64,000 nt of DNA from a virus. The position numbers were made by a program, and so were the translations under genes. The notes below the pieces were generated by a model, which was given only the letters and a program-made list of their open reading frames with translations, made no database searches and was not told the origin of the DNA. Positions 27,380 to 44,483 of the stretch are shown here, piece after piece (within the stretch, counting starts at the first letter, position 1; each line of letters starts with the position of its first letter). Location of the stretch: the IMG/VR virus record IMGVR_UViG_3300015371_000011, positions 1-64,000 of that record; one strand, written 5' to 3'.

Positions 27380-28888
27380 TCATATCACGTTTGCACTAGT
27401 AATAGTATTCTCCAACAACCGCCTCTTCAAATCGTGGCCGAGCATAAAGCCAATCTCCATGATTGCCCGCGGCCCAAACTTGCCTAACACATAGGCGCGA
27501 TACGACTCGTCACTAAAATACCGCTTGAATGCATAATCCCTAAACGCCAGTACTTCTTCTGGCAGCAGGTACTTGGTCCCTAACGGCTCGTGCTCGTAAC
27601 TGTGAAACGACCAGGCCAGCCAGTCTTTCGGTGGTGTCCAGCCTTGCTTGATTTTGTCATTCCAGAGTTGGCTACCAGGGAAGGCCACGGTGCAATACAT
27701 ATTCACGTATTCTGTCTTTAATTCGAGCGCAAGCTGCAGCGTGTCATTCATGGATTCTAGTGTGTCGTTAGGCAGGCCAAACATATAATTGGCAATGATA
27801 TTTATGCCGTGCTGCTTAATGCGATTCACGGTGTCGATAATATCGTCACGACCATAGTCGCCCTTGTCTACACCGTCGCGTACCTCATCGGACACGGATT
27901 CAATTCCCAGACACAGCCACTTGAATCCGGCTTGCCGCATTTTATCCAGGAATCTGTCTTTGGTCTGATCAACACGGCCGTAACACCACAGGTTGAGCCT
28001 GTCACCGTAACGCTCTCTAATCCCGTCGCAAATGGATTCCACATGGTGCGGTTGCAGCACGAACATCTCATCATTAATTCGTATATTGGTAACGCCATAA
28101 GTCTCCACCAGTATGTCTAGCTCACGCATGACGGACGGCGCCGACCACATGCGATACATATTCACGCCGTCACGCCTAGTCGCTAGCTTGTTGCCTTCGC
28201 TAAATGGCGAATTAATCATGCAAAATGAGCACGCAAACGGGCAGCCGAGTGACGTGTAGATCGATGCGTATGGCGTGCGCTCGAAGTTATTCGTCCAGGC
28301 GTGGTGCGCGTAGGAGCGATAGCGGGCCATCGGCAGCAAATCCCAGCAATCGCCGGGCATGTCGTGGTCGAGGTCTTGGACGTTAGGAGCGTGTTGCGGT
28401 GATTCACTCGGCACCACGCCGCGCACCGTACCTGCCAAACCTTTCAGCTTGCACACCATATCAAACACGCTAATCGGCCCTTCGCCCGTACAAACATAAT
28501 CCGCACCCGTTTCACGCAAACTTTGATAAGGCAATGCCGCTGGATGACCGCCTATCAGCATTATAGGCATATCTGGCATGACAGCCTTAAGCGCTTTAAC
28601 CGTGGCCGCAGCCGCTGGCATTTTCTGCGTGCTGGCCGATGGCTGTGTACCGTGCACTATCACGCATACGAGCTTCGGTTGGAGGTGGCTTGCTAGCCTA
28701 GCCACAGTCTCGGCGTCATAGCCCATCGCCTCGGCGTCCAATATCATCACACTGATGTTTTTACGGCGCAGATATGACGCGATCAGGCGGCAGTGGATAG
28801 GCGGCTCGATGGCCGTTAAGCCTGCGCCCGTCAAGCCTTGAAAGACTTTATGCGGCTCGCCTGGATTGATGAGGATAACGTCAGCCAT
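27380..28888 (-). CDS. B12-binding radical SAM enzyme (class B methyltransferase-like)
   Basis: IGGHPAALP..GEG; TSLGCPFACSFC; LGIES; FGLPNDT. Confidence 0.92.
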   Translation of the reverse strand: MADVILINPGEPHKVFQGLTGAGLTAIEPPIHCRLIASYLRRKNISVMILDAEAMGYDAETVARLASHLQPKLVCVIVHGTQPSASTQKMPAAAATVKALKAVMPDMPIMLIGGHPAALPYQSLRETGADYVCTGEGPISVFDMVCKLKGLAGTVRGVVPSESPQHAPNVQDLDHDMPGDCWDLLPMARYRSYAHHAWTNNFERTPYASIYTSLGCPFACSFCMINSPFSEGNKLATRRDGVNMYRMWSAPSVMRELDILVETYGVTNIRINDEMFVLQPHHVESICDGIRERYGDRLNLWCYGRVDQTKDRFLDKMRQAGFKWLCLGIESVSDEVRDGVDKGDYGRDDIIDTVNRIKQHGINIIANYMFGLPNDTLESMNDTLQLALELKTEYVNMYCTVAFPGSQLWNDKIKQGWTPPKDWLAWSFHSYEHEPLGTKYLLPEEVLAFRDYAFKRYFSDESYRAYVLGKFGPRAIMEIGFMLGHDLKRRLLENTITSANVI

Positions 28889-29786
28889 GCCGCTCTGCCC
28901 ATTTCAGAAAATAGCCCGTCGGGTCACGAAAGAATTTCTGCACCACATTGACAAAATACTGCCGCGCATTGCGTGAATCACTAGTCGGCTCAATGTGCAA
29001 TATGCGCTCAAACTCGTTATGCATCTCCCAATCCGTCGCCCTAGTTGATACCTGATAGATAAAGTCCAACGGCTCGTCATCTTCGGCCAATATCGGCGAG
29101 TCCGCAATCACAATCGGCACACGGCCAAACGCGCACGCCTCATACAGCCGTGCCGTATGGTGGCCCGCACCACCTGGACACAGGCAAAACGCGTTATCAA
29201 GCATGCCCTGAATGTAACTTGCCGCAATCTCGTGCTGCGGCGGCACCACCGCGCCCCAGAATTGATTCGTCTTGATCTCGGCAGGCAGCCCCTTACATGC
29301 GTCAATCATACGCTGGCGCAGGCCGTTCGGCTCAGGCTGGCCATTGAAATACAGGCGCCTGAGTGGCGGCGATGTCCATTCGGGTGCGCCATCGTCTACG
29401 AGTTGCATGAGTAGTCGGCTACACGGCGGACGTGCCATAAAGCGCCAGCCTTGCTGCACTTTCCCTGCGCGGCTGTAGGCATTCATGACGATGAGCGTTG
29501 CAGGCTTCAGCCATTCGGGCCATTCAATGCACCACCAATCACCCTCTAAATCAAAAATGTGCTTGCGCTCACGACCTTTATAGTGCTCAAAACGATTCGG
29601 GTGCAGCAAGAACGCCACGTTATTGTGGTAGCGGCCGCACCAAAACCAATCCGCGGCGCCAGGGTCGGTTGTCACGGCAAAGTGCGCGTCCACGTCGGCC
29701 TGATTAGCAAATGGCCAGCGCTCGAATCCCTGCGTGGGATACTTGTCAACGAGGGCGTCAGGGTAAATGAATAGCTTAGGCTTCAA
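28881..29786 (-). CDS. Exostosin-family (GT47-like) glycosyltransferase
   Basis: FCLCPGGAG..RLYEACAFGRVPIVIAD. Confidence 0.8.
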   Translation of the reverse strand: MKPKLFIYPDALVDKYPTQGFERWPFANQADVDAHFAVTTDPGAADWFWCGRYHNNVAFLLHPNRFEHYKGRERKHIFDLEGDWWCIEWPEWLKPATLIVMNAYSRAGKVQQGWRFMARPPCSRLLMQLVDDGAPEWTSPPLRRLYFNGQPEPNGLRQRMIDACKGLPAEIKTNQFWGAVVPPQHEIAASYIQGMLDNAFCLCPGGAGHHTARLYEACAFGRVPIVIADSPILAEDDEPLDFIYQVSTRATDWEMHNEFERILHIEPTSDSRNARQYFVNVVQKFFRDPTGYFLKWAERHG

Positions 29787-29974
29787 TTTTTACGTCGCCA
29801 CGTTTCTCCACACACATTACAGCGCCAGTATTCAGCGTGGTTAGGATCGCCTATGTCCTTTAACAAAGCTACCAAACAACTTGTAAATGCATCGCACTTT
29901 GGACAGAACTGCTCTTCAGGTAAACCAAATGGATTGTCACGCTCTGCCTTTAGGGCTTCACTTTTCTTTCTCAT
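29783..29974 (-). CDS. Zn-ribbon protein
   Basis: CPKC..CNVCG. Confidence 0.6.
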   Translation of the reverse strand: MRKKSEALKAERDNPFGLPEEQFCPKCDAFTSCLVALLKDIGDPNHAEYWRCNVCGETWRRKN

Positions 29975-30173
29975 ACGGCGCCAGCGCCCGCTCCGACATC
30001 ACTTCTTCTATAAACTCGCCATCACGCAGCGCTTTGATTGCGCACAGATAACAGGCATACACCATATTACGCGCATCACGGTAACGGATACGCCAGCACG
30101 CGGGTTTGGCCCCGCATATTTCACAGACAAGACGCGTGTCACCTCCACTATAAGAAAACGCTGCGGTATTCAT
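29958..30173 (-). CDS. Zn-finger protein
   Basis: CEICG..CYLC. Confidence 0.55.
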   Translation of the reverse strand: MNTAAFSYSGGDTRLVCEICGAKPACWRIRYRDARNMVYACYLCAIKALRDGEFIEEVMSERALAPYEKEK

Positions 30174-30182
30174 TCATCCCTT

Positions 30183-31061
30183 TCATTCCCATGCCCCCCA
30201 CGGCGACGGCGTGCGCACCGATTCACGCCCCTCTCGTATTGCCGCTATGCGCTCCACAAACATGCGGTGGTTATCCTCGGCGCTTCGCTGCCACGGCTTG
30301 ACAATCGAGTGCGCCAACCGCGGCAGGCCATAAACGCCAATCTTGTAGTTGCACGTCGGCAACAAGCAAAATTTCCAACCTACCATCTCCGCCCTGATAC
30401 CAATATGAATATCCTGTGACGCATAGCCGCCGTCAAATCTCTCATCCCAGCCATTGATTTCCTTCAGCACGGCTAGCGGTATCGAATCATTAAGGCTCGC
30501 ATACCATTTATCGCCCGGCATGCGAAACATTTCAGTCTCGCCTATGCGCTCGCCCTGCATGCCGCCTTTGCGCTCGCGATAAACAGGCTCGACACAATCA
30601 AAGTAATGCCGCGCACGCTCGGCGGTAAACTCATCGGTAAACGACGTCCACCAGACATCTTCAATCTCTTTCGAGTCATTCATCGCCGGCCACGGATAGC
30701 GGTCCAAATAACCGCTGGCCGAGTAACCAGACAGATTCTTGTAGATATTCCAATGATCACGCAGGTAATACGGGTAGGCCCAGATATAATCGTTGAGAAA
30801 ACAAATCAGCTCGCCCTCGGCATGGCGCAGGCCAGTATTCCAGCCTGCACAGTGGTCTATGTAATCGTGTGGCGTTGGCGGGACGTGCCTAAATGCAGGA
30901 ATGAAATAATCATCTACAAACCTTTTGCGCGCTTCATGCCATTCATCGACATAAATCACTTCGAACTGTGGCGCATCTACCTGTGCTTTCATCGAATTGA
31001 TAAGCATGTCCAAGCCGCCGAGCGAGATTGTGGTGGTGATGACAGAGATGCTCATTGCCAA
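30183..31061 (-). CDS. GT2-family glycosyltransferase
   Basis: ISVITTT..FEVIYVDE..NTGLRHAEGELICFLND..INGWDERF. Confidence 0.85.
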   Translation of the reverse strand: MAMSISVITTTISLGGLDMLINSMKAQVDAPQFEVIYVDEWHEARKRFVDDYFIPAFRHVPPTPHDYIDHCAGWNTGLRHAEGELICFLNDYIWAYPYYLRDHWNIYKNLSGYSASGYLDRYPWPAMNDSKEIEDVWWTSFTDEFTAERARHYFDCVEPVYRERKGGMQGERIGETEMFRMPGDKWYASLNDSIPLAVLKEINGWDERFDGGYASQDIHIGIRAEMVGWKFCLLPTCNYKIGVYGLPRLAHSIVKPWQRSAEDNHRMFVERIAAIREGRESVRTPSPWGAWE

Positions 31062-32023
31062 TCTTCGCCTAGATAATCCTTGATGCGCTTCACCACGCCA
31101 TCAACGGTAAGTCCGTACTTTTTGTGCGCCTCGTCCCTACCCCACGGCTCAAAGTGATACACGTCAGGTATGCCGACGCGCAGTAACGAATTAAGGTTGT
31201 CGGCATCATGCAGGACTTCGCTCACAATCGAGCCAAGGCCACCGCTCAAGAAATGTTCTTCTAGTGTGATGATATTTTTCTGGCCTACGTGCGCTAGAAA
31301 TTCATCTTTATCAAAAGGCCATACCCGCGCCACATCGACTACGCCAAATTCTAATTTCTCCTTTAGAAAAAATTCGCTCACCTTCAATGCCGTGTGCGTC
31401 ATGATGCCTGACGAGACGATCCATGCATCACACTCGGACTTGCGCCAATTAGGATACAAAAACGTCAACGGCTTAAAGTCGTATTCGTCGGCCTTGTAGA
31501 TATTCGGTATGCCTGCCCGATCAAATCTAATATATTTCGGCGTTAGCCGCTCATAGCTGAGTTTCGCCAATGCAGCGCCACAGACTGAATCGGCTGGCGA
31601 GTATATCTCCAAGCCACAGCATGTGCGCATGATCGAAATGTCGTCCGCCGTATGATGCGACGGACCCATCTCCGCATAAGCATAGCCTGCACCCACACCA
31701 AGAATCGTAATAGGCAATTTCGAAGCACACACATCTAGCTTCACAAACTCATGGACATGACTGGTCGCAAACGGGGCGATGCAGTACGTCCATACGCGTT
31801 TGCCTTCCTGCGCTAATCCAGATGCCATACCAATCATGTTTTGCTCGGCTATGCCTACCTGAATAAACTGGCGTGGCGTCTGCTCGACAAACTGATCGAG
31901 ACTCGGTGCGCCATTGTCGGCGGTTATCAGAATGCAATTCGAGTCAGCTTTGAAAATATCGAATAGCGCATTGAAAAAGGCGTCGCGCTGGCCAATGATT
32001 CGCGGCGTTGCTTCGTAGCTCAT
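31052..32023 (-). CDS. Transketolase-like C-terminal subunit
   Basis: VGIAEQNMIGMASGLA..GPSHH..TLEEH..GGLG. Confidence 0.92.
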   Translation of the reverse strand: MSYEATPRIIGQRDAFFNALFDIFKADSNCILITADNGAPSLDQFVEQTPRQFIQVGIAEQNMIGMASGLAQEGKRVWTYCIAPFATSHVHEFVKLDVCASKLPITILGVGAGYAYAEMGPSHHTADDISIMRTCCGLEIYSPADSVCGAALAKLSYERLTPKYIRFDRAGIPNIYKADEYDFKPLTFLYPNWRKSECDAWIVSSGIMTHTALKVSEFFLKEKLEFGVVDVARVWPFDKDEFLAHVGQKNIITLEEHFLSGGLGSIVSEVLHDADNLNSLLRVGIPDVYHFEPWGRDEAHKKYGLTVDGVVKRIKDYLGEDWQ

Positions 32024-32886
32024 TCCATGCCCAACTCTTTCTTGCTTTGCTCTAAGTCCGCGCCTAGGGGCGCTCTATAATGCCAGAGCCGCACATCTTG
32101 CATTACGCTTGCCCCGTGGCCCTTGTCCGTATGCGCGATAACGCATAGCGGTTTGGTAATCAACGGCCAGTCACGAAAGCCTTCTAGCGACTTGAATATA
32201 TCGTTGAAGTCATGCCCGTCACATTCTCTAATCTCACACCCAAATGCCGCTAGCTTATTTGCCAACGGGTCAAGGCCAGGCCCATCGGACGCATAGAGCA
32301 ATTCATCGTGCATACCGATTGTCGCTTGCTTGTTGTTATCTACAATCAGAATCAGGTGGCCATACGCCCCTACCGCCGACGACTCGTTGTATCGTCCACC
32401 CGCCGTGAATAGCGCCTCCCAATTGCTGCCCTCGTAAAGCTCGCCGTCACCGAGCAAGCAAAATATGAAATGCTTTTTGTTGGCAAGCCGTGCGGCGTGC
32501 GCCATGCCCAGGGCTATCGGCAAGCCATGCCCTAGCGATCCTGTCAGGACTTCAATCCCAGGCACGTTGTATTCAGCATGCACGCCGAGAATGCCACCAG
32601 GGGATGCGAAGCGGTCTATCTCTTCTTCGCTGAAAAAACCCAAATCGGCTAGGATTGGATATAAGCCGAGTCCACCCTGCCCCTTTGAGAGAATGAATCT
32701 GTCACGCCCATCCCATTTCGGATTCTTCGGGTCTACGTTTAGAAGCCCACCGTAATAGAGCGCCACGGTCAACTCCATTTGCGAGAAGGCCGTGCTCACA
32801 TGGCCCGACTCTTTTCTAACCGCCATCTCCAAAACCTGGCGCCGCATCTGGAGCGCCTTGCCTGCCAGAAACTCAACATCAATCAC
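32020..32886 (-). CDS. Transketolase-like N-terminal (TPP-binding) subunit
   Basis: RDRFILSKG..TGSLGHGL..GDGELYEGSNWEA. Confidence 0.92.
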   Translation of the reverse strand: MIDVEFLAGKALQMRRQVLEMAVRKESGHVSTAFSQMELTVALYYGGLLNVDPKNPKWDGRDRFILSKGQGGLGLYPILADLGFFSEEEIDRFASPGGILGVHAEYNVPGIEVLTGSLGHGLPIALGMAHAARLANKKHFIFCLLGDGELYEGSNWEALFTAGGRYNESSAVGAYGHLILIVDNNKQATIGMHDELLYASDGPGLDPLANKLAAFGCEIRECDGHDFNDIFKSLEGFRDWPLITKPLCVIAHTDKGHGASVMQDVRLWHYRAPLGADLEQSKKELGME

Positions 32887-33823
32887 GATTCACCGCCTTT
32901 AATTCATCCACCAGCCATTCAAGGCTTTCAGTCAAACCAATCTTTGCCGTCCAGCCCGTCTCGATGCAAAACTTATCGCAATCGGGCACTGCGTAGAAAA
33001 CATCCGTCGGCCGGCGCAGCGTCTCTTTCTCGTGCCACTCGGCATACACGGGCACAATGCGCCTTAGCTCGTCGGCTATGCGCTGGATGCTGCACGGCTC
33101 CTCGCTACCGATATTGTAAACGCCCGGCCCGCATTTCGTGGCCGCGAGATAGTACGCCTTCACAATATCCCTCACATCACAAAACGTACGCACGGGCGAC
33201 AAATCGCCATGCTCAATCACATCCGTGTCGCCGCGTGAGAACTGCACGAGCTGATAGGCTAGCGACGTAGCCACCAGGTCGGGACGGCGCGGATTGATAT
33301 AACCAAAGGCGCGCGTAATCACCAGCGGGAATCCTGCCATCATCGAATAGCAATTGGCGTAGTGCTCCTGACACGATTTCGTCACCGCATACGGGCTGCA
33401 CGGATTGTGCGGCTGCTCTTCACGAATCGGGTTTTCTATCTGCGGCACATTGCCGTAAATCTCGGATGATGACGCCAACACTACCTTCGGCTTTAACCCG
33501 CTTTCGGCTATGGCGTGAAAGAGGTTAAGAGTACCGCCGACATTATTGGCTAGAAACAATTCAGGCTCAGCGAAACACCGCTTCACGTTGGCAATACCCG
33601 CCAAATGAATAATCACTTCGGGATTAGCGTTTTTTAAAGCACGAGCAATCTTTTCATTATCCGTTGCTAGATTTATTGGATGTGAATAAACGTCAAGATA
33701 CTTCGCCACTTCACCAGCTACAGGCTTGCGGCCGATGCCATACACCGTCTCGCCTGCCTCTTTTAGAAACTTGGCCTGATAGTAGCCAACCGCGCCCGTG
33801 GCGCCGACGATAAGAAACCTCAC
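32879..33823 (-). CDS. NDP-sugar dehydratase/reductase (Gmd/Rmd-like extended SDR)
   Basis: GATGAVG..SSSEIYG..SPYAVTK..RTFCDVRD. Confidence 0.88.
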   Translation of the reverse strand: MRFLIVGATGAVGYYQAKFLKEAGETVYGIGRKPVAGEVAKYLDVYSHPINLATDNEKIARALKNANPEVIIHLAGIANVKRCFAEPELFLANNVGGTLNLFHAIAESGLKPKVVLASSSEIYGNVPQIENPIREEQPHNPCSPYAVTKSCQEHYANCYSMMAGFPLVITRAFGYINPRRPDLVATSLAYQLVQFSRGDTDVIEHGDLSPVRTFCDVRDIVKAYYLAATKCGPGVYNIGSEEPCSIQRIADELRRIVPVYAEWHEKETLRRPTDVFYAVPDCDKFCIETGWTAKIGLTESLEWLVDELKAVNRD

Positions 33824-34791
33824 TTGCGCGCCACTCCCTGATTCTTTCTATACCAATCCACCGTCAACTTGAGTCCGTGATGCAGGCTGGTGCGCGCCTC
33901 GAATCCCATATCACGCTTTGCCTTGCTCACGTCGAAACACCGCCGCGCCTGCCCGTTAGGCATGGTGTGGTCCCATGTAATGCGGCCCTTAAAGCCTGTG
34001 ATTTTCGCCAGCATCTTCACCACTTCGGCTATACTGTGCTCCTTGCCGCTCGATAGATTCACAATCTGCGGCTCGTCATAGACTTCGGCAGCTTTCAATA
34101 TCCCTTCGCAGACATCAGGCGCATAAATAAAATCGCGCGTAGCCGTGCCGTGGCCCCATAGGCTTAATACATCGGCGTTATTGTCCACAGCCTCAACGAA
34201 TCGACGCACCAATGCGGGTATGACGTGGCCCTGCTCCAGGTTAAACCAGTCGTGCGGCCCTTACAGATTGCCAGGTATCACCACCACGCTAGGCAGACCG
34301 TACTGCGTATAAACGGCCTTGGCCTGCACGATTTGCATCCTTTTGGCTAACGAATACGGCGCGCTCTCTGGCTGCGGCAAGCCATTCCAGTAATCCTCTT
34401 CTTTGGTCGGTATAGGCGCATGCTCAGGATAGCCGCAGCCCGCCGATACTAGCACGGCTTTCTTGATGCCGTAGTCGTGCGCGTAATAGAGCAGGTGGGC
34501 GCTCATGGTCAGATTATCGTAAAAGAAATCCGCTGGCCGCTGCATGTTAGCGTTGATGCCGCCTACCAGGCCCGCCATGTGCACGAGCACCGTCGGCACC
34601 CGCTTAGTGTGGTGGTTGATATACAATTCTTCAACCTGATTCGCGTCTCTCAAGTCGTAAGCCTCGTGGCTAGGCCCAACGATATACGCTTTGCGGTGCA
34701 GGCAGCGCATGGTGCGCTGAAAGTTTCTTCCAAGAAACCCTGCGGACCCTGTTAATAAAGTTTGGTGCTCGTCCCAGTTAAACATGGCCAC
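33820..34791 (-). pseudogene. fcl: GDP-L-fucose synthase-like epimerase/reductase interrupted by an in-frame TAA at 34261-34263
   Basis: AGLVGGINAN..YSLAKR..GNL*GPHD..HVIPALVRRF..WGHGTATRDF. Confidence 0.85.
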
Positions 34792-34826
34792 CTAACCGAA
34801 ACGGCGCGCCTTCGACGCCGACGCGC

Positions 34827-35015: not shown

Positions 35016-35017
35016 GA

Positions 35018-35395
35018 TTAAAACCTCTTGCCGCCTGCAAAGTTTAAAGGGATTTTGTGCTTAACGCTTTTCCATGCAACCAAGCGGTCGGGTGCCCATG
35101 AGTACCAGATATAAACTTCAAGAATGTTATTCTGCTCAAGCAAGTCGAAAGTCCGCGCCTGATTCGGAGAAACGCTATCGTTTGGTCCTTTGACTTCAAC
35201 GCCAATCGTCTTGCCGTTAAACCGCACTAAAAAATCAGGCCAGCTAGGACGATGGACCACCGTCCAATTATGGATATGCGCACGCTTGACAAAATCTTGC
35301 TCAGCAGGCACTAGCCGTTCAGGTATAACTTTAAAATTCTTTGCCTTTTTGATTTCCTTAGCGATGAATTTTCGCAAGCTAGGACTCAGGCTCAT
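35018..35395 (-). CDS. VRR-NUC-like nuclease
   Basis: WPDFLV..GVEVKG..SPNQ. Confidence 0.75.
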   Translation of the reverse strand: MSLSPSLRKFIAKEIKKAKNFKVIPERLVPAEQDFVKRAHIHNWTVVHRPSWPDFLVRFNGKTIGVEVKGPNDSVSPNQARTFDLLEQNNILEVYIWYSWAPDRLVAWKSVKHKIPLNFAGGKRF

Positions 35396-36613: not shown

Positions 36614-36747
36614 TTTTTCATATACACGAATCGGCTGGCCTTGGAGCAGTAGCCTTTATAGCCGCGCTTGGTCATAAAACTTCTATCCACACGGCGGCGC
36701 ATATCACGCCTGATTATCTCGCCGCACTTTGGACACAATAACTTCAC
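36607..36747 (-). CDS. Small Zn-ribbon protein (46 aa)
   Basis: GTGA-coupled start MKLLCPKCG; fills the gap exactly. Confidence 0.55.
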   Translation of the reverse strand: MKLLCPKCGEIIRRDMRRRVDRSFMTKRGYKGYCSKASRFVYMKKC

Positions 36748-37727
36748 GCCAACCCCGCAATCCGAAACATGCCCTTCCAGAATTGCCGCCCGTCAAATAT
36801 CTCTTTGGCCTTTTTCGCGCCTGCCTCGGCTATCCTTGCCGCCTCATTTTGCCCTGGCCCTAAATAGTATTTGAGTCTATCCACCAGCGTTGATGCGCCC
36901 TCGAAGCCAATGGCACCATTAGCCAGCAAGTGAAACGGCTCGCTGAATTTTACGTAATGCTTGAATTCATCTAATAGGCGCGGCGTCTCGTCGTTCGCGC
37001 TCTCCATCAACATTGCGCCGCATAAAGTCGCCTCAGACGTCCTGCCATTTAGGTGCTGAAACGTGACGGCACTGGTGAAATTTAGCGTAATCTTGGATCG
37101 GCGCAGCAACCACGCATAGGCGTCGATGCTATCCACTTTCTGCCCGACGATGCCGCCGCCGCGAGTCACGGCTATGCCCATACCATCAAGCCAGCCGAGA
37201 TTGAGCGCACGGTCGAGACGGCCCGACGTACTGCCGATAAAGCTCAGCGGTATGTCGCGCTCGCCAAACGGCGCAGAATAGAATATGCGCGGGTCTTTCG
37301 GCTCAGGCAGCCAAAACGTCTTGTCGGCAAACGACGTGAATTGTTTCCAGTGCTCGGCGGTATCGACAAACACATTGGCCGTGACGTGTGGCGCATACAT
37401 ATCGGCGTGCAGCACCACATTCGGCGCGCTCTCTAGCCACAGGCCAATGACGGGTATCTTGTAGCGGTCGCGCAGAAAGCGAAACAACTCAGGCTCGATA
37501 TTGCCCGCAAAATTCACTAGCGGCGTTGCCACAATCAAGTCTGGATTCCAACCGCTGGCATACGCGGCCAGCGCCTTGTGGCCGTCCTCACTCACGTCAA
37601 ACCAGTAGCGCTTAATATCAAATCCCAGCGCCTCGGCTGCACCGATTGAGCAATACTCGTGCGGTGATTGGCGTAAGTCGCTCTCATAGCCGTGCATCGT
37701 TTTGTGCGTGGCGAATAGGATTTTCAT
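36744..37727 (-). CDS. GT-B glycosyltransferase (CgeB/YkvP-like)
   Basis: DIPLSFIG..LRRSKITLNF..GRTSEATLCGAMLM. Confidence 0.82.
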   Translation of the reverse strand: MKILFATHKTMHGYESDLRQSPHEYCSIGAAEALGFDIKRYWFDVSEDGHKALAAYASGWNPDLIVATPLVNFAGNIEPELFRFLRDRYKIPVIGLWLESAPNVVLHADMYAPHVTANVFVDTAEHWKQFTSFADKTFWLPEPKDPRIFYSAPFGERDIPLSFIGSTSGRLDRALNLGWLDGMGIAVTRGGGIVGQKVDSIDAYAWLLRRSKITLNFTSAVTFQHLNGRTSEATLCGAMLMESANDETPRLLDEFKHYVKFSEPFHLLANGAIGFEGASTLVDRLKYYLGPGQNEAARIAEAGAKKAKEIFDGRQFWKGMFRIAGLA

Positions 37728-38374
37728 GCGAATTTTAGGACTTCTTGCGCCATGCGTTTGGCAGCTATCTCGCAATATTTCTCTTCTATCTCGATACCAA
37801 TAGCCTTGCGGCCCAAGTCCTTAGCGGCTCGCAATGTGGTTCCGCTGCCCATGAAGGGGTCAAGAATGGTTTCATCCTGCTGACAATAATTCGTCAAACA
37901 CCAATTCATCAATTTTAATGGCTTCTGCGTCGGATGGTCTCGTAGTGTCTCTTTGCCTAACAAACCATTCCATTCAATTGTTATTTTTTTTACAGACTTA
38001 CGATTGAATGAAGTCCAAGCTAATTCACAATCGCCAAAAGTTGGCATGGTGTTTAATTTATCCCAACTAATCCAATGGGTAGAGCGTGGCAACAAATCAG
38101 CAAAAAAATTACCGCCCCAAATAATAGCGTTTGATGCCATGTCTAAAATCATCAAAAAAATCTCTTGGCTAGGCCGTTCTGCGTCCCACGCATCAATGTA
38201 CTGGCGTCGCCTAATAGGCGTGCCAAAGCCGCCAAAGCCGTCAAAGCCGTGTGACATACTCACACCATACGGCGGATCAGTCAGCACTAAATCCACCGGC
38301 TCAAGCTGCAGCAGTATTTCTCTACAATCCCCATGAAATATCGTCACCGCATCGTCCTGGTAATAGGGTTTCAT
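37724..38374 (-). CDS. DNA methyltransferase (N6-mA, beta class)
   Basis: LTDPPY..HPTQKP..LDPFMGSGTT. Confidence 0.92.
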   Translation of the reverse strand: MKPYYQDDAVTIFHGDCREILLQLEPVDLVLTDPPYGVSMSHGFDGFGGFGTPIRRRQYIDAWDAERPSQEIFLMILDMASNAIIWGGNFFADLLPRSTHWISWDKLNTMPTFGDCELAWTSFNRKSVKKITIEWNGLLGKETLRDHPTQKPLKLMNWCLTNYCQQDETILDPFMGSGTTLRAAKDLGRKAIGIEIEEKYCEIAAKRMAQEVLKFA

Positions 38375-41355
38375 AGCAATAATATCTGCCCCGACTTGCG
38401 CCCGTAGAGCACGACTTCACGCGCAAACTTCTTCTTATCGCCGCCGTAATGCCACGGCGTGGGTATGCGCCACATCTGGTTTTCAATCACAGTGTCGTCG
38501 TACAGAAGCCCGCCCGTCTCGTCGTAGAATCCCGCCAAGTCATCGGCTGCCCTGAAAAATGTGGCCTCCTCTGGCCCCCAGTAAACCTCGCCGTACTCAG
38601 GCATGAGCGCCGCTATCGGCTCGCCACGCTCAAGCACGCCGTCAAGAATCTTATTGTACTCGGCCATCTCGTTGCGCCAGAAAGCGCCGTTGCTGTACAT
38701 AATCGCTTCGATGAATGTGCTCGGCATAATACCCTTGGTAAGCAAGTCCTGCAGGATAAAAATACCCAACTTTAGCCCGTGCAGCGCCATAAAAATCCAT
38801 GAAAAAATATTCATGCGCCGCCACTTGACTATGTCCATACTGCTCGTCTCGACAACCAAATCCTCATACTCGGCCAGATAACCATCGGCCCGTACCGTGC
38901 CGTGAATCTCGGCTAACTCTATACGCCGTGTGCGGATACCAAACTGCGCCTGATAGTCGGGCCGGCCCATCTCGGTATTAGGCAAGGCCATCAGCGGGTA
39001 GATAAACACCTGCCCACTCATGCCAGCCGCCACGATCTCGTCCAGCCCCTGCTTCCACGTCTCGTATGTCTCACCCGGCAGCCCGACAATAAATTCGCTA
39101 TATGTCGGCACGCCTTCGGCGTTGAAACGCTCCTGCAGCTTCTCGTAGGTAGACATTTTGATATTGCTGCGCTTGATATTCTGCAGCACCGTGGCGTTGT
39201 TGCTTTGGCGTGCGAGCGTGACGCTTTTAGACATGCCTGCGTCGGCTAGCATCTTGCCTACGGCGTAAACCTTGTCGTCGGTGTTCTTGCCGTAATTGAC
39301 GCGAAACCGCTGCGGATAGCCGTATTTCTCTTTGGTGGCTATCAGGTACTCGGCTATTTCACGGTCGCGTGCGAGCATGCCAAAATTCGACGCGCTCCCA
39401 AGTGCATACGGGATTTTATTACGCCCCAACCATTCAATCTCCGCAAATACTCGGTCTAGTCCATAGTAGCTCATCTTGTGTTGCCCAAGTCCATATTCGC
39501 AGAATGAACAATTTTCACAGAGCAACCCGTTAGCAAAAAAATTATGATTCGGCGTAGCTTCAACAATATCATAAACTCGCCGATGCTCGCTTGGCGAAAT
39601 CTCTTCTACTGCACACCAAGAAACCTTTGCAGTCGTTGCACCATCGCTTCGTTCAACTTGTCGTCGTTCCAAATCACAAAAATCTCCCAACCGAAATATT
39701 GATAATCTGCCGCTTCCATTTCCACGTCCTTTTCCTCTTGGTGCCAATAACGACCATGAGCGAGAATCGCTTTTCTTACTCCCTTTTTGCAGTGGATAAA
39801 ATCTGGATTGCGACAACCTCCCGATACTCCCGGCCCCAACCAAAATGTCCTGTCGCCAGTATATTTGAATGGCAGTTGATACTGTTGAAAAAATTTTATC
39901 AGCTTGCTCTCGAAACCATTCGGCGGCTCGCCAGCCTTTAAAAAATGAGCGGCATGCCATTGCGGATCGTTCCAATATTGCCGCATCTTTTGCTTCCACG
40001 ATTCGATCATTTGCTTGTGCTTGATTGGATCTAACCGTCGCATCGGATTGTTGTCGCCAGTTTGCCATGCGTAACCGAGCCTCTTGCTTGTTTCCACCCC
40101 TTTCCTCGCATGTGCTAGTCGTTGTTCTCGACTCATTCGCCGCATTGGACTGTTGTCGCCAGTGAATTTCAGGTAGTGCCCCATTGCTCGTTGCGTTGCT
40201 ACCACCTTCGCTACGTGTTCTGGCGATTTCTTTATTCCCTTGTTCATACCCGGATGTCTGTAGAGACCCGCTGCTGCTGCCCTCTTTATCCCCTCTATTC
40301 GCCGCTCTTCGCCTCCGCTTTGCTTCCGACTTGCTGCAGCTTTGATTCCCCGGAGTCTTTGCACTTCCAACGGAGTCGTTAATACTCTCTGTCTCAAGTG
40401 CGGCAGATAGCACCCCATCGAACAATACATCCTCTCTTTTGGCCGATGATCTATCGACGTTCCACAACCCTTGCAAAATCTTGTCGCCGACTTTAAGGTC
40501 GCCTGCTGTAACCCATCCCCTGTCGGTGTAAAAAGGATGATCTCTAGTTGCTCCAATTTCAGAACCTCCCGCTACTATCTTGATGGTTTCCTTAATGCCG
40601 CTACAAATCGAAAATGCGACTCTATTCCACGCAAGGCATTCGTCTTTCTCATTCCAACCTAAAATATAATCACCGGACTGCACTGCTTCTATATTTTTTT
40701 GCCCTGTTTGAGTAACTACCACCGTTCCTTCCGCGAGACACATAAATGGGCATCCGCGATCCTGCTCCAAGACGTAGCTATACTCTATTGGCTCTGGATG
40801 CTGCTCCAATAACCCGTCAAATAAGCCGGTCAACGCGGGCGACGGCAATTCATTCAACTCTTTCTGAAACGGATAATCCTGAGCGCAGTAGTGCACATCA
40901 TTGTCTCGATACGTTATCTGCGGGATACCTTCAAAGTCCGTGCTGTGAGTTTCCGCCCAACGCTTTAATACGGCAGTAAACGCCTGCTCACCCGCGCGTC
41001 TGACAGCTACGTCGATAAATGGATGCTTGGATAAATACTCAATGGCGTTATCGGGCACCTGCAATCCACCAAACACAATCAGGCACTCAGGCCAACGGCG
41101 TTTCACTTCGGCGGCTACTGCCAGGTTTAATTGCTCATTCCACACCGCCACAGAGAAAGCCGCCACGTCCACACGGTTGTCATAGTGCTTGAGAATATTG
41201 GCCGGCTTATCCACGCAGTAAAGAAAATCGCCAAACTCGTAATTGGCCTTGATGTCGTCATTCTGCTCGGCATAGGCGCGCAGCAATCCCGTAGCCAGCG
41301 GCAAGTAGCAGTTGCGGCCGAGCCTGATGTTATATTCGTTTAGGACTACGCGCAT
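38371..41355 (-). CDS. B12-binding radical SAM enzyme with an intein inside the CxxxCxxC motif
   Basis: RGCPFM|intein|CSFC; IVGLPGETYETW. Confidence 0.88.
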   Translation of the reverse strand: MRVVLNEYNIRLGRNCYLPLATGLLRAYAEQNDDIKANYEFGDFLYCVDKPANILKHYDNRVDVAAFSVAVWNEQLNLAVAAEVKRRWPECLIVFGGLQVPDNAIEYLSKHPFIDVAVRRAGEQAFTAVLKRWAETHSTDFEGIPQITYRDNDVHYCAQDYPFQKELNELPSPALTGLFDGLLEQHPEPIEYSYVLEQDRGCPFMCLAEGTVVVTQTGQKNIEAVQSGDYILGWNEKDECLAWNRVAFSICSGIKETIKIVAGGSEIGATRDHPFYTDRGWVTAGDLKVGDKILQGLWNVDRSSAKREDVLFDGVLSAALETESINDSVGSAKTPGNQSCSKSEAKRRRRAANRGDKEGSSSGSLQTSGYEQGNKEIARTRSEGGSNATSNGALPEIHWRQQSNAANESRTTTSTCEERGGNKQEARLRMANWRQQSDATVRSNQAQANDRIVEAKDAAILERSAMACRSFFKGWRAAEWFREQADKIFSTVSTAIQIYWRQDILVGAGSIGRLSQSRFYPLQKGSKKSDSRSWSLLAPRGKGRGNGSGRLSIFRLGDFCDLERRQVERSDGATTAKVSWCAVEEISPSEHRRVYDIVEATPNHNFFANGLLCENCSFCEYGLGQHKMSYYGLDRVFAEIEWLGRNKIPYALGSASNFGMLARDREIAEYLIATKEKYGYPQRFRVNYGKNTDDKVYAVGKMLADAGMSKSVTLARQSNNATVLQNIKRSNIKMSTYEKLQERFNAEGVPTYSEFIVGLPGETYETWKQGLDEIVAAGMSGQVFIYPLMALPNTEMGRPDYQAQFGIRTRRIELAEIHGTVRADGYLAEYEDLVVETSSMDIVKWRRMNIFSWIFMALHGLKLGIFILQDLLTKGIMPSTFIEAIMYSNGAFWRNEMAEYNKILDGVLERGEPIAALMPEYGEVYWGPEEATFFRAADDLAGFYDETGGLLYDDTVIENQMWRIPTPWHYGGDKKKFAREVVLYGRKSGQILLL
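39511..40740 (-). mobile_element. Intein (410 aa)
   Basis: CLAEGTVV..TRDHPFY..GW..LKVGD..VYDI..HNFFANGLLCEN|C. Confidence 0.88.
39606..40556 (-). CDS. Out-of-frame endonuclease nested in the intein (Zn-finger, NUMOD3-like repeats, Vsr/DUF559-like nuclease); true start uncertain
   Basis: CKGCG..YCSMGC; NKGIKKSPEH; TGDNSPMRR/TGDNNPMRR; PNGFE..FKYTG..NPDFI..HGRYWH..IWNDD. Confidence 0.8.
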   Translation of the reverse strand: MEQLEIILFTPTGDGLQQATLKSATRFCKGCGTSIDHRPKERMYCSMGCYLPHLRQRVLTTPLEVQRLRGIKAAASRKQSGGEERRIEGIKRAAAAGLYRHPGMNKGIKKSPEHVAKVVATQRAMGHYLKFTGDNSPMRRMSREQRLAHARKGVETSKRLGYAWQTGDNNPMRRLDPIKHKQMIESWKQKMRQYWNDPQWHAAHFLKAGEPPNGFESKLIKFFQQYQLPFKYTGDRTFWLGPGVSGGCRNPDFIHCKKGVRKAILAHGRYWHQEEKDVEMEAADYQYFGWEIFVIWNDDKLNEAMVQRLQRFLGVQ

Positions 41356-42713
41356 GACGACACACCCGTTATCATTGCATCCATCTGTACTCGCACAATC
41401 CGCGACACAGGCTTGACCGCCTTCTTCAGCACTTCGAAAATATACCGCATGTGCTCTTCGTTAAGCCCAGGATGCACGCCAACGAAAAAGCCGCCATGCA
41501 TGATTCTGTCCGTATTTGCCAAGGTGCCGTGCACACGGTGCGTAATGCCGCTAAACGCGGGTTGGCGTAGCAGGTTGCCCGCGAATATCGGCCGCGTCTC
41601 AATCTTAGCGGCCTCTAACGCCGCTATGATTTCACGCGTAGGCACGCCGCTGTTATTGATTAGCGGGTAAGCATACGGCGACGGGTCGGCGCGTGAATCC
41701 CACTTTGACAATATGAAATAGTCAGCCAACTCGGCGCGGCACATGGCGTGCAGCGTGTTGAAGTTTTCTTGCCGCTTGCCGATGATCGTGCCTAGTTTAT
41801 CAAACTGAGCACACAGCACCGCCGCCTGCATATCGGTTGCCTGCATATTGTAGCCGATATTTGAATACTGATATTTGTGATCGGTCCCTGGCGGCAATCC
41901 TGGCGTGTCCCATTCAAACCGCTTGCCGCAGGTATTTTCTTTGCCTGGCGCGCAGTAGCACGACCGACCCCATTGCGAGATTGAGCGTGCTGCTATTTTC
42001 AATTTAGGGTTATTGACGATGACGCTGCCCGCCTCGCCGCAAGTCGTATGGTGCGCAGGGTAGTGGCTCAGAGATGCCATGTCGCCGAAGGTGCCAGTCA
42101 GCATGCCGTCAAACCTAGAGCCTAGCGCATCGCAATTGTCCTCTAAGAACAACAAGCCATTCTTGGCACAGAAATATTTCACCGCGGCGCAATCAAACGG
42201 CAGGCCCATCGGGTGCGGTAGCATGACGGCGCGCGTCCTTGGCCCAACTGCACTAACAATGTCCGTGAATGTCGGGTTATAGGTGCCAAGACCCACGTCC
42301 ACGAATACAGGCACAAGCCGATTTTGAATAATCGGCGCTAGCGTAGTCGGGAATCCCGCCGCCACGGTTATAACTTCATCGCCATCCTGCAGCGGCCTAA
42401 GTCCGTATTGCGCAATGTCCTTGCTGCATACCGTGGCAAGCATGAGCAGGTTGGCCGATGAGCCGCTATTGACGAGCAAGACGTCGCGCGCGCCAAAATA
42501 CTTGATCATGGACGTCTCGAATTGCTCCGTCCACTTGCCCGCCGTCATCCATTGCGACAATGCCACGTCTATCAGGTTGAGCGTTTCCTGTTCGTCAAAG
42601 AAATGCTTGCTGTAGTGGATCTTTGTCTGGCCTGGGATGAAGTCCTGCGGCGTGTGCAACGCCTGCACGAATTTCTTAGCCAAGTCCCAGATCAACTCAA
42701 CGGTGGCGTCCAT
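41346..42713 (-). CDS. rfbH: CDP-4-keto-6-deoxyglucose 3-dehydratase (E1, RfbH/DdhC-like)
   Basis: VNSGSSANL; EDNCDALG; YPAHH (His in place of Lys); GRSCYC..NTC Fe-S motif; DHKY. Confidence 0.85.
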   Translation of the reverse strand: MDATVELIWDLAKKFVQALHTPQDFIPGQTKIHYSKHFFDEQETLNLIDVALSQWMTAGKWTEQFETSMIKYFGARDVLLVNSGSSANLLMLATVCSKDIAQYGLRPLQDGDEVITVAAGFPTTLAPIIQNRLVPVFVDVGLGTYNPTFTDIVSAVGPRTRAVMLPHPMGLPFDCAAVKYFCAKNGLLFLEDNCDALGSRFDGMLTGTFGDMASLSHYPAHHTTCGEAGSVIVNNPKLKIAARSISQWGRSCYCAPGKENTCGKRFEWDTPGLPPGTDHKYQYSNIGYNMQATDMQAAVLCAQFDKLGTIIGKRQENFNTLHAMCRAELADYFILSKWDSRADPSPYAYPLINNSGVPTREIIAALEAAKIETRPIFAGNLLRQPAFSGITHRVHGTLANTDRIMHGGFFVGVHPGLNEEHMRYIFEVLKKAVKPVSRIVRVQMDAMITGVSSCA

Positions 42714-42738
42714 TATCGCCGCCCGCCCATGACCTTGC

Positions 42739-42981
42739 TCATTTACCAACCTCATTGAGCCATTCGGTCGCTTTTTCGAGCACGGTGAGGAATCCACCTT
42801 CATAAACTCGGTCGCCATATTTAACGGTGCAGGACGGTGATAGATCAGCAAATGTGCGCACCGTTATATTCACCGCTAACGGCCATTTATAACCCTTACC
42901 CGAAAGTGCGCTGTCAGATTGCCGTGTCGTCACAACACATAGCGCCGCCAAGAATTCATCGACAACCTTACTCATTTTCAA
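42739..42981 (-). CDS. Hypothetical protein
   Basis: Coupled start. Confidence 0.5.
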   Translation of the reverse strand: MKMSKVVDEFLAALCVVTTRQSDSALSGKGYKWPLAVNITVRTFADLSPSCTVKYGDRVYEGGFLTVLEKATEWLNEVGK

Positions 42982-44009
42982 TCCTTCTCATTACAATAAT
43001 ACTCGTACGTCCGTCGCAGCCCATCATCCAGCGACACGGCTGGCGGCGGCGCTAACTTCAATATCTTGCTGGTATCGGGCCGCCTGCGGCTCGGCGCATC
43101 GCTTAACCGCTCCTGATTGTCCACATGCTTCATTTCGAGTTTCGGGAATAGCGCCTGCGCCGTCCAGCCAAAGGCGTTGATCGACACCTCGCTATTGCCG
43201 TCGCCCACGTTATAGGCTTCACCATTCTCACCGTCGAGCAGCACGGCCATGAATTGCAGCACGGCATCGCTGATATAAACGAATGAGCGCGTAGCACGGC
43301 CGTCGCCGTAAATGGTTAGCGGCGTCTCCGTCATTAGCGCCTGCATGAGCTGAGGCACTAGGCGACCATCGTCTACGGCTTCGCCCGGCCCGTAGATATT
43401 AAACGGTCGCACCACCTTTACGGGCACGCCATGCATCTTGTGGTAAATCTGGCATAGTGTCTCGCTTAACCGCTTGCTTTCGTCATACGGGCTTGATGGC
43501 CCCGTAAACGAGCAATTGCCCCAATACGTTTCTGGCGTGGGTATAAACAGCGCAAACGGATCGCCGTAAACCTGCACGCTTGAAAAATGCAGCACCGCCT
43601 TGGAGCGTGACTCCAGCGCCAACCCCAGAATCACCTTAGTCAAGTCCACGTTAGCTTCAATCGTCTCTAACGGCTTTTCTAAGTACATTTTGGCCGACGC
43701 TATGGACGCTAGGTGAATGTAATAATCGGCCCCCGCCGCGCCCATATAGGCCAGCGGCGCCTCACACTGGAGCAGCTTGACGTCCGTACCCCGCACGACG
43801 CGACTAGGGGCAATCATCGTGTCATAGCCCGTAACCTTGACGGACTTCTTGAAATATGTCTCGTTGGCGTAGGCAACCAGGCCCATCAGGTAGCTGCCGA
43901 CAAACCCCGCGGCGCCAGTAATAAATACCTTGGCCCCCGCTAAATCCTTGAAAGTAGGCGTGATGGCATCGAGGATGCTGTCATAGTCGGATTGTAAGAC
44001 GGGATTCAT
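42978..44009 (-). CDS. NAD-dependent epimerase/dehydratase (UDP-glucuronate decarboxylase-like)
   Basis: TGAAGFVG..YDESKR..RPFNIYGP..GDGRATRSFVY. Confidence 0.9.
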   Translation of the reverse strand: MNPVLQSDYDSILDAITPTFKDLAGAKVFITGAAGFVGSYLMGLVAYANETYFKKSVKVTGYDTMIAPSRVVRGTDVKLLQCEAPLAYMGAAGADYYIHLASIASAKMYLEKPLETIEANVDLTKVILGLALESRSKAVLHFSSVQVYGDPFALFIPTPETYWGNCSFTGPSSPYDESKRLSETLCQIYHKMHGVPVKVVRPFNIYGPGEAVDDGRLVPQLMQALMTETPLTIYGDGRATRSFVYISDAVLQFMAVLLDGENGEAYNVGDGNSEVSINAFGWTAQALFPKLEMKHVDNQERLSDAPSRRRPDTSKILKLAPPPAVSLDDGLRRTYEYYCNEKD

Positions 44010-44116
44010 TCACCATCCAAATATAACTGAAAACACCGCAGACCAGACCACAGCTATAATAAATGCCAAAATCAACCATCTCATGTCTTTATCACGCTTC
44101 AGCTTGCTTGTGTGAC

Positions 44117-44458: not shown

Positions 44459-44483
44459 GCCGTCCTTGCCAACGGCTCTAGCC

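Follow-up and report, generated by a model that had tools for sequence, protein, structure and literature searches.

A predicted sugar-tailoring and glycosyltransferase gene cluster with a split transketolase-like enzyme and two B12-binding radical-SAM enzymes in a complete phage genome

The usual picture of a phage particle is one of bare protein. The DNA considered here, a window consisting of bases 1-64000 of the 81,479-bp IMG/VR virus record IMGVR_UViG_3300015371_000011, carries at positions 27380-44009 a cluster of sugar genes, tightly packed and all on the minus strand, for which an initial annotation made from the sequence had proposed a pathway to an unusual, probably branched and methylated, deoxysugar glycan. 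We consider it very probable that the cluster is a real phage-encoded system for sugar tailoring and transfer. The reading we prefer, to which we give about an even chance, is that the phage has its own system, working entirely in the cytoplasm, for tailoring a nucleotide sugar and assembling a glycan from it, most likely on virion proteins. Phage-encoded glycosyltransferases (GTs) and virion glycosylation are already described, and islands of GT and radical S-adenosylmethionine (SAM) genes in marine myophages are in print (PMC7029224).

The closest described systems come from bacteria and from other phages. In Yersinia pseudotuberculosis, yersiniose A is made by the E1/E3 enzymes, followed by YerE, a member of the decarboxylase family acting on the 4-keto sugar, and then by a reductase, a route presented as established (PMC12247030). 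For the split-gene transketolases of the miharamycin and amipurimycin pathways, the transfer of a hydroxyacetyl unit to a keto sugar is described in section 2.3 of the same paper as proposed and not shown in vitro, and 13 further predicted branching transketolases are given there, all from Streptomycetes (PMC12247030). Mycobacteriophages such as Che8 encode GTs that, according to Freeman et al. (2023), decorate the capsid and tail-tube proteins of the phage itself, the one case in which virion glycosylation is established. Pelagimyophages carry a GT-rich, lipopolysaccharide (LPS)-like putative "host recognition cluster" with radical-SAM genes (PMC7029224).

Comparison of the open reading frames (ORFs) with Pfam and NCBIfam recovered every gene class that the initial annotation had named, all on the minus strand. 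The genes of the cluster, together with the small ORFs and ordinary phage genes between them, are as follows.

42978-44009, minus strand: SDR3, an extended nucleoside diphosphate (NDP)-sugar short-chain dehydrogenase/reductase (SDR) of the reductase/epimerase type (PF01370, 146.8 bits)
42739-42981, minus strand: 80-aa (amino acid) ORF between SDR3 and E1, without Pfam or NCBIfam match
41346-42713 (listed ORF to 42851), minus strand: E1, an E1/RfbH-type, pyridoxamine phosphate-dependent NDP-4-keto-6-deoxyhexose 3-dehydratase (NF011936)
38371-41355, minus strand: rSAM2, a B12-binding radical-SAM enzyme with a 409-aa intein (Pfam HINT/intein, B12-binding and Radical_SAM)
37724-38374, minus strand: N6/N4 DNA methylase, an ordinary phage gene (PF01555, 97.9 bits)
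36744-37775, minus strand: CgeB-type (Glyco_trans_1_2) GT (PF13524, 41.1 bits, cut-off 25)
35612-36613, minus strand: class I SAM-dependent methyltransferase (PF13489, 62.6 bits)
between the methyltransferase and the next gene, minus strand: 78-aa ORF
35018-35395, minus strand: VRR-NUC nuclease, a phage gene (PF08774, 29 bits)
33820-34791, minus strand: SDR2, GDP-L-fucose-synthase-like 3,5-epimerase/4-reductase with one in-frame TAA (NF047922)
32879-33823, minus strand: SDR1, an SDR of the GMD/RMD family (PF16363, 167 bits)
32020-32886, minus strand: TktN, the thiamine-diphosphate-binding half of a split transketolase-like enzyme (PF00456, 95.9 bits)
31052-32023, minus strand: TktC, the pyrimidine-binding and C-terminal half (PF02779, 82.4 bits; PF02780, 59.5 bits)
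30183-31061, minus strand: putative GT2, weak (PF00535, 19.9 bits, below the cut-off of 23.3; NF041875, 18.7 bits)
28881-29786, minus strand: GT47/exostosin-like GT (PF03016, 41.5 bits, cut-off 33.4)
27380-28888, minus strand: rSAM1, a B12-binding radical-SAM enzyme (PF02310, 49.8 bits; PF04055, 59.8 bits)

Some details of the earlier gene list change on this basis. All three SDRs are present, the frame of SDR2 being cut by a single TAA; both B12-binding radical-SAM enzymes are present, rSAM2 with an intein in its CxxxCxxC motif; and of the three GTs that had been named, the GT47-like and CgeB-type proteins stand while the GT2 assignment lies below the Pfam cut-off. The glycan genes also extend further than had been proposed, since a GT4-methyltransferase-GT2 fusion and an FkbM-family methyltransferase fall outside 27380-44009.

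The likeness to the yersiniose route lies in an E1-type 3-dehydratase that gives a 4-keto-3,6-dideoxy sugar, a thiamine-diphosphate enzyme that branches the keto carbon, and a reduction (PMC12247030). Where Yersinia has YerE of the decarboxylase family (PMC12247030), the phage has a split enzyme of the transketolase type. It adds two B12-binding radical-SAM enzymes and lacks a nucleotidyltransferase, an E3 and a clear 4,6-dehydratase. No cluster ORF had another thiamine family as its best match, and none was of the YerE type (decarboxylase-family and flavin-binding). The yersiniose-type chemistry suggested in the initial annotation thus survives as the combination of a 3-dehydratase with thiamine-enzyme logic, which the conserved gene trio described below supports, and fails for a YerE-type enzyme, because the phage protein is a transketolase type. 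A two-gene transketolase inside a sugar-tailoring cluster is what the phage shares with the miharamycin and amipurimycin pathways (PMC12247030). Those are Streptomyces nucleoside-antibiotic clusters, set apart here by description, whereas the phage clade is tied to B12-binding radical-SAM enzymes and His-type DegT proteins in polysaccharide loci of many uncultured phyla. Phage-encoded GTs, here predicted, are the point in common with the mycobacteriophages as described; unlike them, this phage also encodes deoxysugar tailoring, and its capsid protein is without an evident C-terminal acceptor tail. Pelagimyophages resemble it in having a large sugar and GT island with radical-SAM cassettes within the structural region of a tailed phage, but they are marine T4-like phages, and the word "transketolase" is absent from the text of that paper, for which E1 was not among the terms searched (PMC7029224).

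E1 scored 523 bits with the RfbH equivalog NF011936 (cut-off 423) and aligned to the solved Yersinia enzyme (PDB 3bcx) with E = 1.9e-112. It keeps His220 in place of the Schiff-base Lys, reading Y-P-A-H-H as in 3bcx, against Y-P-A-K-H in the H220K mutant 3bb8. Counted on the 3bcx alignment, Cys residues stand opposite positions 193, 251, 253 and 261, which we take to be the [2Fe-2S] ligands with their spacing C-x57-C-x-C-x7-C, and the non-ligand Cys257 is replaced by Lys. The probable start is the ATG at 42713. Inteins occur also in E1 homologues on other contigs, P0128 (692 aa) and P0142 (789 aa, with LAGLIDADG). P0142 is 58% identical to E1 and is paired with a TktN homologue of 57% identity (P0024), and two further E1 homologues, P0124 and P0125, reach 82-87%.

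For SDR1, the nearest solved relative is a GDP-6-deoxy-D-lyxo-4-hexulose reductase (PDB 2pk3, 124 bits), and its NCBIfam scores (dTDP-glucose dehydratase 88.9, GMD 79.4 and CDP-glucose dehydratase 65.9 bits) are all far below the cut-offs. A 4,6-dehydratase role for SDR1, suggested by its S-S-S-E-I-Y-G motif, was dropped because this nearest solved relative, a 4-reductase, has the same motif. SDR3 is nearest to human UDP-glucuronate decarboxylase (145 bits) among solved structures, with the Glu of the decarboxylase motif replaced by Gln (S-S-V-Q-V-Y-G), and it falls below every NCBIfam equivalog cut-off (102.5 bits against 365). Both halves of SDR2 have NF047922 as their best match, at 83.1 and 96.9 bits with a cut-off of 500. 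The nearest relatives use different nucleotide carriers, cytidine diphosphate (CDP) for E1, guanosine diphosphate (GDP) for SDR1 and SDR2, and uridine diphosphate (UDP) for SDR3.

TktN and TktC retain what a thiamine enzyme needs to hold its cofactor but depart from transketolases at the substrate site. The cofactor motifs L-L-G-D-G-E-L and D-N-N are kept in TktN, aligned to the split transketolase 6yak, its best solved relative, and TktC (best solved relative 6yaj) keeps G-I-A-E-Q-N with the cofactor-activating Glu. Where canonical enzymes have S-K-G-H, the phage TktN has S-K-G-Q, and in TktC the segment G-V-G-A-G-Y-A-Y-A-E-M-G replaces the canonical (S/T)-H-x-G...G-E-D-G, as it does in all listed TktC proteins whose genes are linked to a radical-SAM gene (rSAM-linked). 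In the rSAM-linked clade, phage included, G-V-G-A-G-Y-A-Y-x-x-M-G-P-S/T-H-H stands against the canonical (S/T)-H-x-G...G-E-D-G-x-S-H-Q, and A-D-N-G-A-P is found where canonical split transketolases have D-A-D-L; S-K-G-Q is present in most rSAM-linked rows and a minority retain S-K-G-H. In ordinary transketolases, the changed residues (the His of S-K-G-H and the His...G-E-D-G segment) hold the sugar phosphate and the acceptor hydroxyl. Neither half reached the transketolase equivalog NF004559 (185.9 bits for TktN and 137.4 for TktC, cut-off 488).

The closest database relatives of TktN are split transketolases at 55-65% identity, with one at 79%. In a tree of 134 distinct TktN rows, a branch with a support (Shimodaira-Hasegawa-like approximate likelihood ratio test, SH-aLRT) of 99 separates 53 rows from 81 and places the phage protein in a non-canonical, rSAM-linked clade, in keeping with a specialised enzyme. 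Of the 53 rows on the first side, 33 have an rSAM1 neighbour (every such row in the tree), 19 gave no rSAM1 match in the DNA fetched, and the remaining one is the phage; the 81-row side, which is largely Bacillota, has no rSAM1 neighbour. Because the substrate-site residues are altered, the cofactor motifs retained and the clade separate, TktN and TktC thus appear to form a thiamine enzyme with a different substrate. The alternative of a pentose-phosphate auxiliary gene was excluded by the clade position and the substrate-site residues.

Both radical-SAM proteins have the parts expected of B12-dependent enzymes. rSAM1 combines PF02310 and PF04055 with an intact C-P-F-A-C-S-F-C (CxxxCxxC) motif; it scored below all NCBIfam cut-offs, the best being HpnJ (115 bits against 577.6). 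In rSAM2, the 409-aa intein occupies residues 206-614 (about 39514-40740) inside CxxxCxxC. It starts with Cys, ends with Asn and sits in frame, with the second Cys of the cluster motif as the +1 residue, and removing residues 206-614 precisely restores CxxxCxxC. The exteins match positions 16-206 and 207-401 of NF033712, the KedN5 family, at 90.7 and 145.3 bits (cut-off 700); since the two profile segments abut at 206/207, the insertion is a clean one. From these motifs, rSAM2 would be active only after intein splicing. The nearest family appears to be that of the KedN5 C-methyltransferases, and with scores this far under the cut-offs neither rSAM1 nor rSAM2 was placed in a characterised subfamily. 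Within the intein region of rSAM2, a 316-aa ORF (39606-40556) lies on the same strand in another frame.

The strongest comparative evidence came from loci around split-transketolase genes, of which 80 from genomes and 80 from metagenomes were fetched. An rSAM1 homologue (37-53% identity, one at 21%) stood beside TktN in 12 of the 80 genome loci, the single 21% neighbour being among them, and in 26 of the 80 metagenome loci. DegT neighbours were only 23-33% identical to E1. We dropped their interpretation as aminotransferases since the alignment gives His, not Lys, at the column of E1 His220, in each of the 16 loci that are rSAM-linked and in 21 of the whole set of 24. Lys was found only in L127, which belongs to the canonical half of the tree, and in L017/L106 (one contig), L017 lying in the rSAM-linked half with its DegT gene about 7 kb from TktN. 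Three loci (L113, L031 and L036) also keep the E1-like Cys pattern. The DegT neighbours are therefore probably dehydratase-type enzymes of the E1/ColD kind.

Sugar-activation and surface-glycan genes surround these loci. We took a census of 99 neighbouring ORFs at 17 rSAM-linked loci of at least 9 kb, using the best 25 of 51 families. Among the matches listed were 14 SDRs, 10 GHMP kinases, 8 DegT proteins and 7 GT4 proteins, as well as 8-9 additional B12 radical-SAM proteins, 6 NTP_transferase, 6 Glyco_trans_1_2 (CgeB-type) and 3 ABC transporter proteins. Locus L027 (Lentisphaerota) holds a kinase, a nucleotidyltransferase, an SDR, DegT, TktN, TktC, a radical-SAM protein, GTs, a methyltransferase and an ABC-2 exporter; L036 (Margulisiibacteriota) has the same series from the kinase to the GTs, together with an RmlC-type epimerase. 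On a 3-kb contig (L109), homologues of E1 (57%), the CgeB-type GT (31%) and TktN (54%) lie side by side. The trio was seen in contigs of Lentisphaerota, Planctomycetota, Omnitrophota, Margulisiibacteriota, Lindowbacteria, candidate-phyla-radiation bacteria and Nanoarchaeota/Woesearchaeota.

The 3-dehydratase, the transketolase-like enzyme and the B12-binding radical-SAM enzyme thus look like a conserved nucleotide-sugar-tailoring unit of surface-glycan loci, and seemingly a distinct, uncharacterised sugar pathway. Word searches of open-access papers returned no publication in which one sugar cluster combines a transketolase with radical SAM and GHMP kinase, and none on a phage with E1 and transketolase. 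The yersiniose-like logic is supported because dehydratase-type DegT proteins, the transketolase clade and B12 radical-SAM enzymes travel together in bacteria, and the DegT-transketolase pairing is the best comparative support for an order in which branching would follow dehydration. The phage has the trio without the activation genes.

To evaluate what the phage does not encode, we searched all six frames of the complete 81,479-bp genome for protein families (E <= 0.1, with positive results in control genomes). These gave 0 matches each for NTP_transferase, CTP_transf_like, Fer2 and FNR-type NAD_binding_1, which confirms genome-wide that the nucleotidyltransferase and E3 reported missing from the cluster are absent. 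No match was found for a thymidylate-synthase-type hydroxymethylase (PF00303), family A or B DNA polymerases (PF00476, PF00136), a tyrosine integrase (PF00589) or a serine recombinase (PF00239); DDE transposases were not searched for. At most 3 membrane segments are predicted for any ORF. Without a polytopic membrane protein the genome has no flippase, polymerase, GT-C or ABC-2 permease, and the system is therefore soluble and dependent on host activated sugars and host reductants.

In the pathway we propose, the host would supply the activated sugar, either an NDP-hexose or an NDP-4-keto-6-deoxyhexose. The E1-type enzyme would remove the 3-hydroxyl with electrons from a host reductase, giving an NDP-4-keto-3,6-dideoxyhexose, and the transketolase-like enzyme would move a two-carbon unit to the 4-keto carbon to give a 4-C-branched sugar. 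The SDRs may then reduce or epimerise this product, the two B12 radical-SAM enzymes may C-methylate, rearrange or otherwise rework unactivated carbons, and SAM methyltransferases may O-methylate it. Transfer would fall to the three stand-alone GTs and the GT4-methyltransferase-GT2 fusion, acting in the cytoplasm and likely on the capsid, tail or fibre proteins of the phage. Judged from the genes, the chances that the product is a 3-deoxy, C-branched, methylated sugar are evenly balanced. The complete version, in which the phage makes a 4-C-branched, C-methylated 3,6-dideoxy sugar through the uncharacterised trio and coats its own capsid or tail with it, is more tentative, and we would not expect every part of it to hold.

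The cluster belongs to the phage genome. The virus record ends in direct repeats of 123 bp, with a completeness rating of 100%, and parts of the window are present in eight rhizosphere-metagenome runs. In the ORF set of our analysis, 101 of 111 ORFs are on the minus strand, and neighbouring ORFs of the cluster overlap mostly by 4-17 nt as judged from their coordinates. Downstream of rSAM1 follow small ORFs, a DNA methylase (24968-26314), a 138-aa ORF and the large terminase, and beyond these the portal, MuF, protease and capsid genes, with tail genes further round the genome. The features outside the cluster that matter for this and for the later argument are as follows.

44117-44497: second VRR-NUC gene (Pfam)
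22115-24586, minus strand: large terminase with a LAGLIDADG intein (phrog_979, E = 5.5e-92; PF14528 and intein domains)
9512-10510, minus strand: major capsid protein (phrog_1005, E = 3.4e-69)
5402-8551, minus strand: GT4-methyltransferase-GT2 fusion of 1049 aa (Pfam: GT4 47-323, methyltransferase 488-663, GT2 715-818)
genome 67856-68689: FkbM-family methyltransferase of the tail module

The interleaving with phage genes and the run into the terminase that had been described from the sequence were found again, with two VRR-NUC genes, an N6/N4 methylase and overlapping ORFs up to the terminase. The GC content is 0.50-0.55 and even over the cluster and its flanks, and we found no direct repeats of at least 25 nt bracketing the cluster. 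Contigs from four rhizosphere runs have 99-100% identity to the stretch, with some depth in 29-30 of 30 bins, and two of them (43978-45040 and 43707-44342) bridge the right border of the cluster. These read data are short, low-depth Logan contigs, possibly from the same samples, and contigs cannot reveal a coverage step. Where contigs from these runs diverge, 31 of the 40 listed differences are at the third base of codons as annotated, which is what purifying selection on these genes in a related strain would produce. Scans for promoters (13 promoter-like sites, with 18.4 +/- 4.3 in shuffled sequence) and terminators (28 terminator-like sites, with 19.2 +/- 4.7) were uninformative over the sequence scanned.

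Terminal repeats, structural genes on both sides, uniform GC and the intein, nuclease and methylase genes inside the cluster support its being a resident part of a complete phage genome, neither a captured host block nor a chimera. The initial view of the genes as domesticated is upheld by the same observations, and its worry about a chimeric assembly found no sign in GC, packing, repeats or the bridging contigs at the right border. That bacterial LPS DNA was joined to a phage contig, with the transketolase merely a pentose-phosphate auxiliary, is an explanation we give almost no weight: it can point to a metagenome assembly and to read contigs that may not be independent, and it is countered by terminal repeats that close the genome, phage genes on both sides of the block and inside it, uniform strand, packing and GC, the two bridging contigs, and a transketolase outside the canonical clade. 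By summed gene lengths, sugar and glycan genes take up about 18.5 kb of 81.5 kb, almost a quarter of the genome.

For the acceptor of the glycan, gene position is the main guide. The GT4-methyltransferase-GT2 fusion follows the capsid gene in the head operon with two small ORFs between, and the FkbM methyltransferase lies among tail genes. In its GT4 part, the fusion shares 23-24% identity with the GT directly after E1 in the uncultured phages L002 and L003 (see below), and its GT2 part has a weak likeness to the peptide glycosyltransferase SunS (35.8 bits, cut-off 350). The phage's own particle is the most economical acceptor because the system is soluble, lysogeny genes are absent, the cluster runs into the late genes, and further members lie in the head and tail modules. 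The capsid protein is one candidate. On gene position, we put a virion protein as the acceptor at slightly short of even. Three consecutive proteins at 1527-4895 (644, 213 and 267 aa) have a hydrophobic, signal-like start and about 20% Ser+Thr; the 644-aa protein has beta-helix and concanavalin-like lectin domains, and signal-like starts are odd for virion proteins. These three could be glycan acceptors or fibre proteins.

Several observations weigh against our preferred reading of a phage-owned system for decorating virions. E1 is without an E3 partner in the genome (PF00111 and PF00175 searches). The E1 homologue of the spinosyn pathway works with general cellular reductases. None of the phage SDRs is clearly a 4,6-dehydratase, SDR1 being nearest to a reductase and SDR3 to a decarboxylase. 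The two halves of SDR2 share one frame, interrupted by a TAA (34261-34263) in place of the Tyr that relatives have in N-L-Y-G-P; TAA closes 26 of the 101 minus-strand ORFs and is hence an ordinary stop in this genome, and the window, examined for a suppressor, holds no tRNA. In the contigs of the four runs no differing letter is listed at 34261-34263, in a listing that does not give the cover of this exact site. The stop could be a broken copy, a strain variant or a base or assembly error. Both the GT2 gene call and the SunS resemblance are below threshold, and the capsid protein lacks the Ser/Thr-rich C-terminal tail of the mycobacteriophage kind. In bacteria, exporters accompany the homologues, and the sugar is there destined for the cell surface. 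Even for the Streptomyces precedent, the branching of sugars by a transketolase is described as unproven in vitro (PMC12247030), and the pelagimyophage authors favour host O-chain modification for comparable islands, as their text states (PMC7029224).

The last of these points leads to the best surviving alternative, in which the sugar is added in the cytoplasm to lipid-linked O-antigen, capsule or teichoic-acid intermediates and exported by the host, for example to block superinfection or the re-adsorption of released virions. The nearest transketolase, radical-SAM and DegT homologues do lie in polysaccharide loci with ABC-2 exporters, GT4 and GT2 proteins and methyltransferases, the capsid has no obvious glycosylation tail, and an O-chain role is the one favoured in print for GT-rich islands (PMC7029224). 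Against this, the genome encodes no polytopic membrane protein and, within the searches made, no tyrosine integrase or serine recombinase (DDE transposases were not searched for), and the cluster runs into the terminase with further glycan genes in the head and tail modules. The genome also lacks the membrane flippase/GT-C and the lysogeny module of a lysogenic (Gtr-type) O-antigen conversion system. We regard conversion of the host surface as unlikely on balance, and as the alternative that deserves most attention.

Some of the evidence would also suit a cluster in decay or lying idle, that is, bacterial genes on their way to being lost and without a defined product. The TAA in SDR2, a GT2 below threshold, an intein in rSAM2 and the missing nucleotidyltransferase, E3 and clear 4,6-dehydratase are all of this kind. 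But there is a single stop codon in about 14.5 kb of sugar genes, the intein is in frame with normal end residues, the listed differences fall at third codon positions in 31 of 40 cases, and homologues at 79-87% identity exist for TktN and E1. The catalytic motifs of E1, both radical-SAM enzymes, the transketolase and the SDRs are intact. We judge decay to be improbable.

The idea that the sugars are placed on phage bases against host restriction fares worse still, and we hold it very improbable. In its favour, genes acting on DNA (two for VRR-NUC nucleases and one for a methylase) are interspersed with the sugar genes, and viral GTs that glycosylate DNA are known, as described elsewhere. However, our searches found neither a hydroxymethylase of the thymidylate-synthase type nor a polymerase of family A or B in the genome, which has at least three N6/N4 DNA methylases and with them an ordinary means of protection, and the GT47-like, GT2, CgeB-type and GT4 genes had no match to Pfam DNA glucosyltransferase models. 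Of the three uses originally suggested, glycosylation of the virion is therefore the best remaining, host-surface conversion is weakened and DNA hypermodification is disfavoured.

Comparison with other phages used 50,697 phage records, none of which holds anything like this set of genes. The whole cluster had no match by megablast. The best E1 relatives in these records are cyanophage proteins at 33% identity; a 42% match on a 2.5-kb "Salmonella phage" fragment was taken for host DNA and set aside. Matches to TktN reached at most 37% and came from unannotated fragments and one Salmonella enterica genome record, the only B12 radical-SAM match was in Streptomyces phage SF3 (24%), and the GT4-methyltransferase-GT2 fusion was not found, eight records giving partial matches of which none covered at least 80% of the query. 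In IMG/VR, the portal protein led to 7 contigs of 4-6 kb (62-64% identity), too short to hold the cluster, and TktN had no relatives there. No relatives of the methyltransferase were found in the metagenome contigs.

IMG/VR did provide a partial parallel in three uncultured phages of 102-112 kb (L002-L004), which have an E1 homologue at 40-44% identity together with an SDR. In L002 the order is methyltransferase, sulfotransferase, nucleotidyltransferase, SDR, RmlC-like protein, 124-aa ORF, E1, GT4, GT4 and GT2, with a tail-completion-like gene further downstream of the GT genes. In contrast to the phage described here, a nucleotidyltransferase is present in three of these three phages and a transketolase in none, and the flanks fetched gave no radical-SAM match.

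Should virion decoration, the reading we prefer, prove true, the phage would be one that supplies its particle with a rare sugar of its own making. Such a coat would matter for stability in soil, for host recognition and for recognition by antibodies. The case would also offer the first natural setting in which to prove sugar branching by a transketolase. The clade itself provides a compact, soluble gene set for testing that branching, with TktN and TktC carrying changed substrate-site residues, a His-type DegT and a B12-binding radical-SAM enzyme, and its distribution suggests that poorly known phyla commonly use such chemistry in their surface glycans.

Some further features of the sequence lie beside these subjects. 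The two VRR-NUC genes (35018-35395 and 44117-44497) are not recent duplicates of each other. Three N6/N4 DNA methylase genes are present in the window (24968-26314, 37724-38374 and 48757-49515). At 26011-26205, contigs of two runs (X2 and X7) have the same 40 other letters instead of 193 bases, a population variant affecting two genes, a DUF5681-like ORF of 166 aa (26311-26811) at its 3' end and the gene for the DNA methylase of 448 aa (24968-26314) in its 5' part. The 231-aa ORF at 50431-51126 matches the second half only of an adenylation (AMP-binding) domain (TIGR01733, 87 bits, profile 128-377) and may be a split or truncated adenylating enzyme. Near the FkbM gene, a plus-strand ORF (genome 69628-70479) carries helix-turn-helix domains and a weak LAGLIDADG match.

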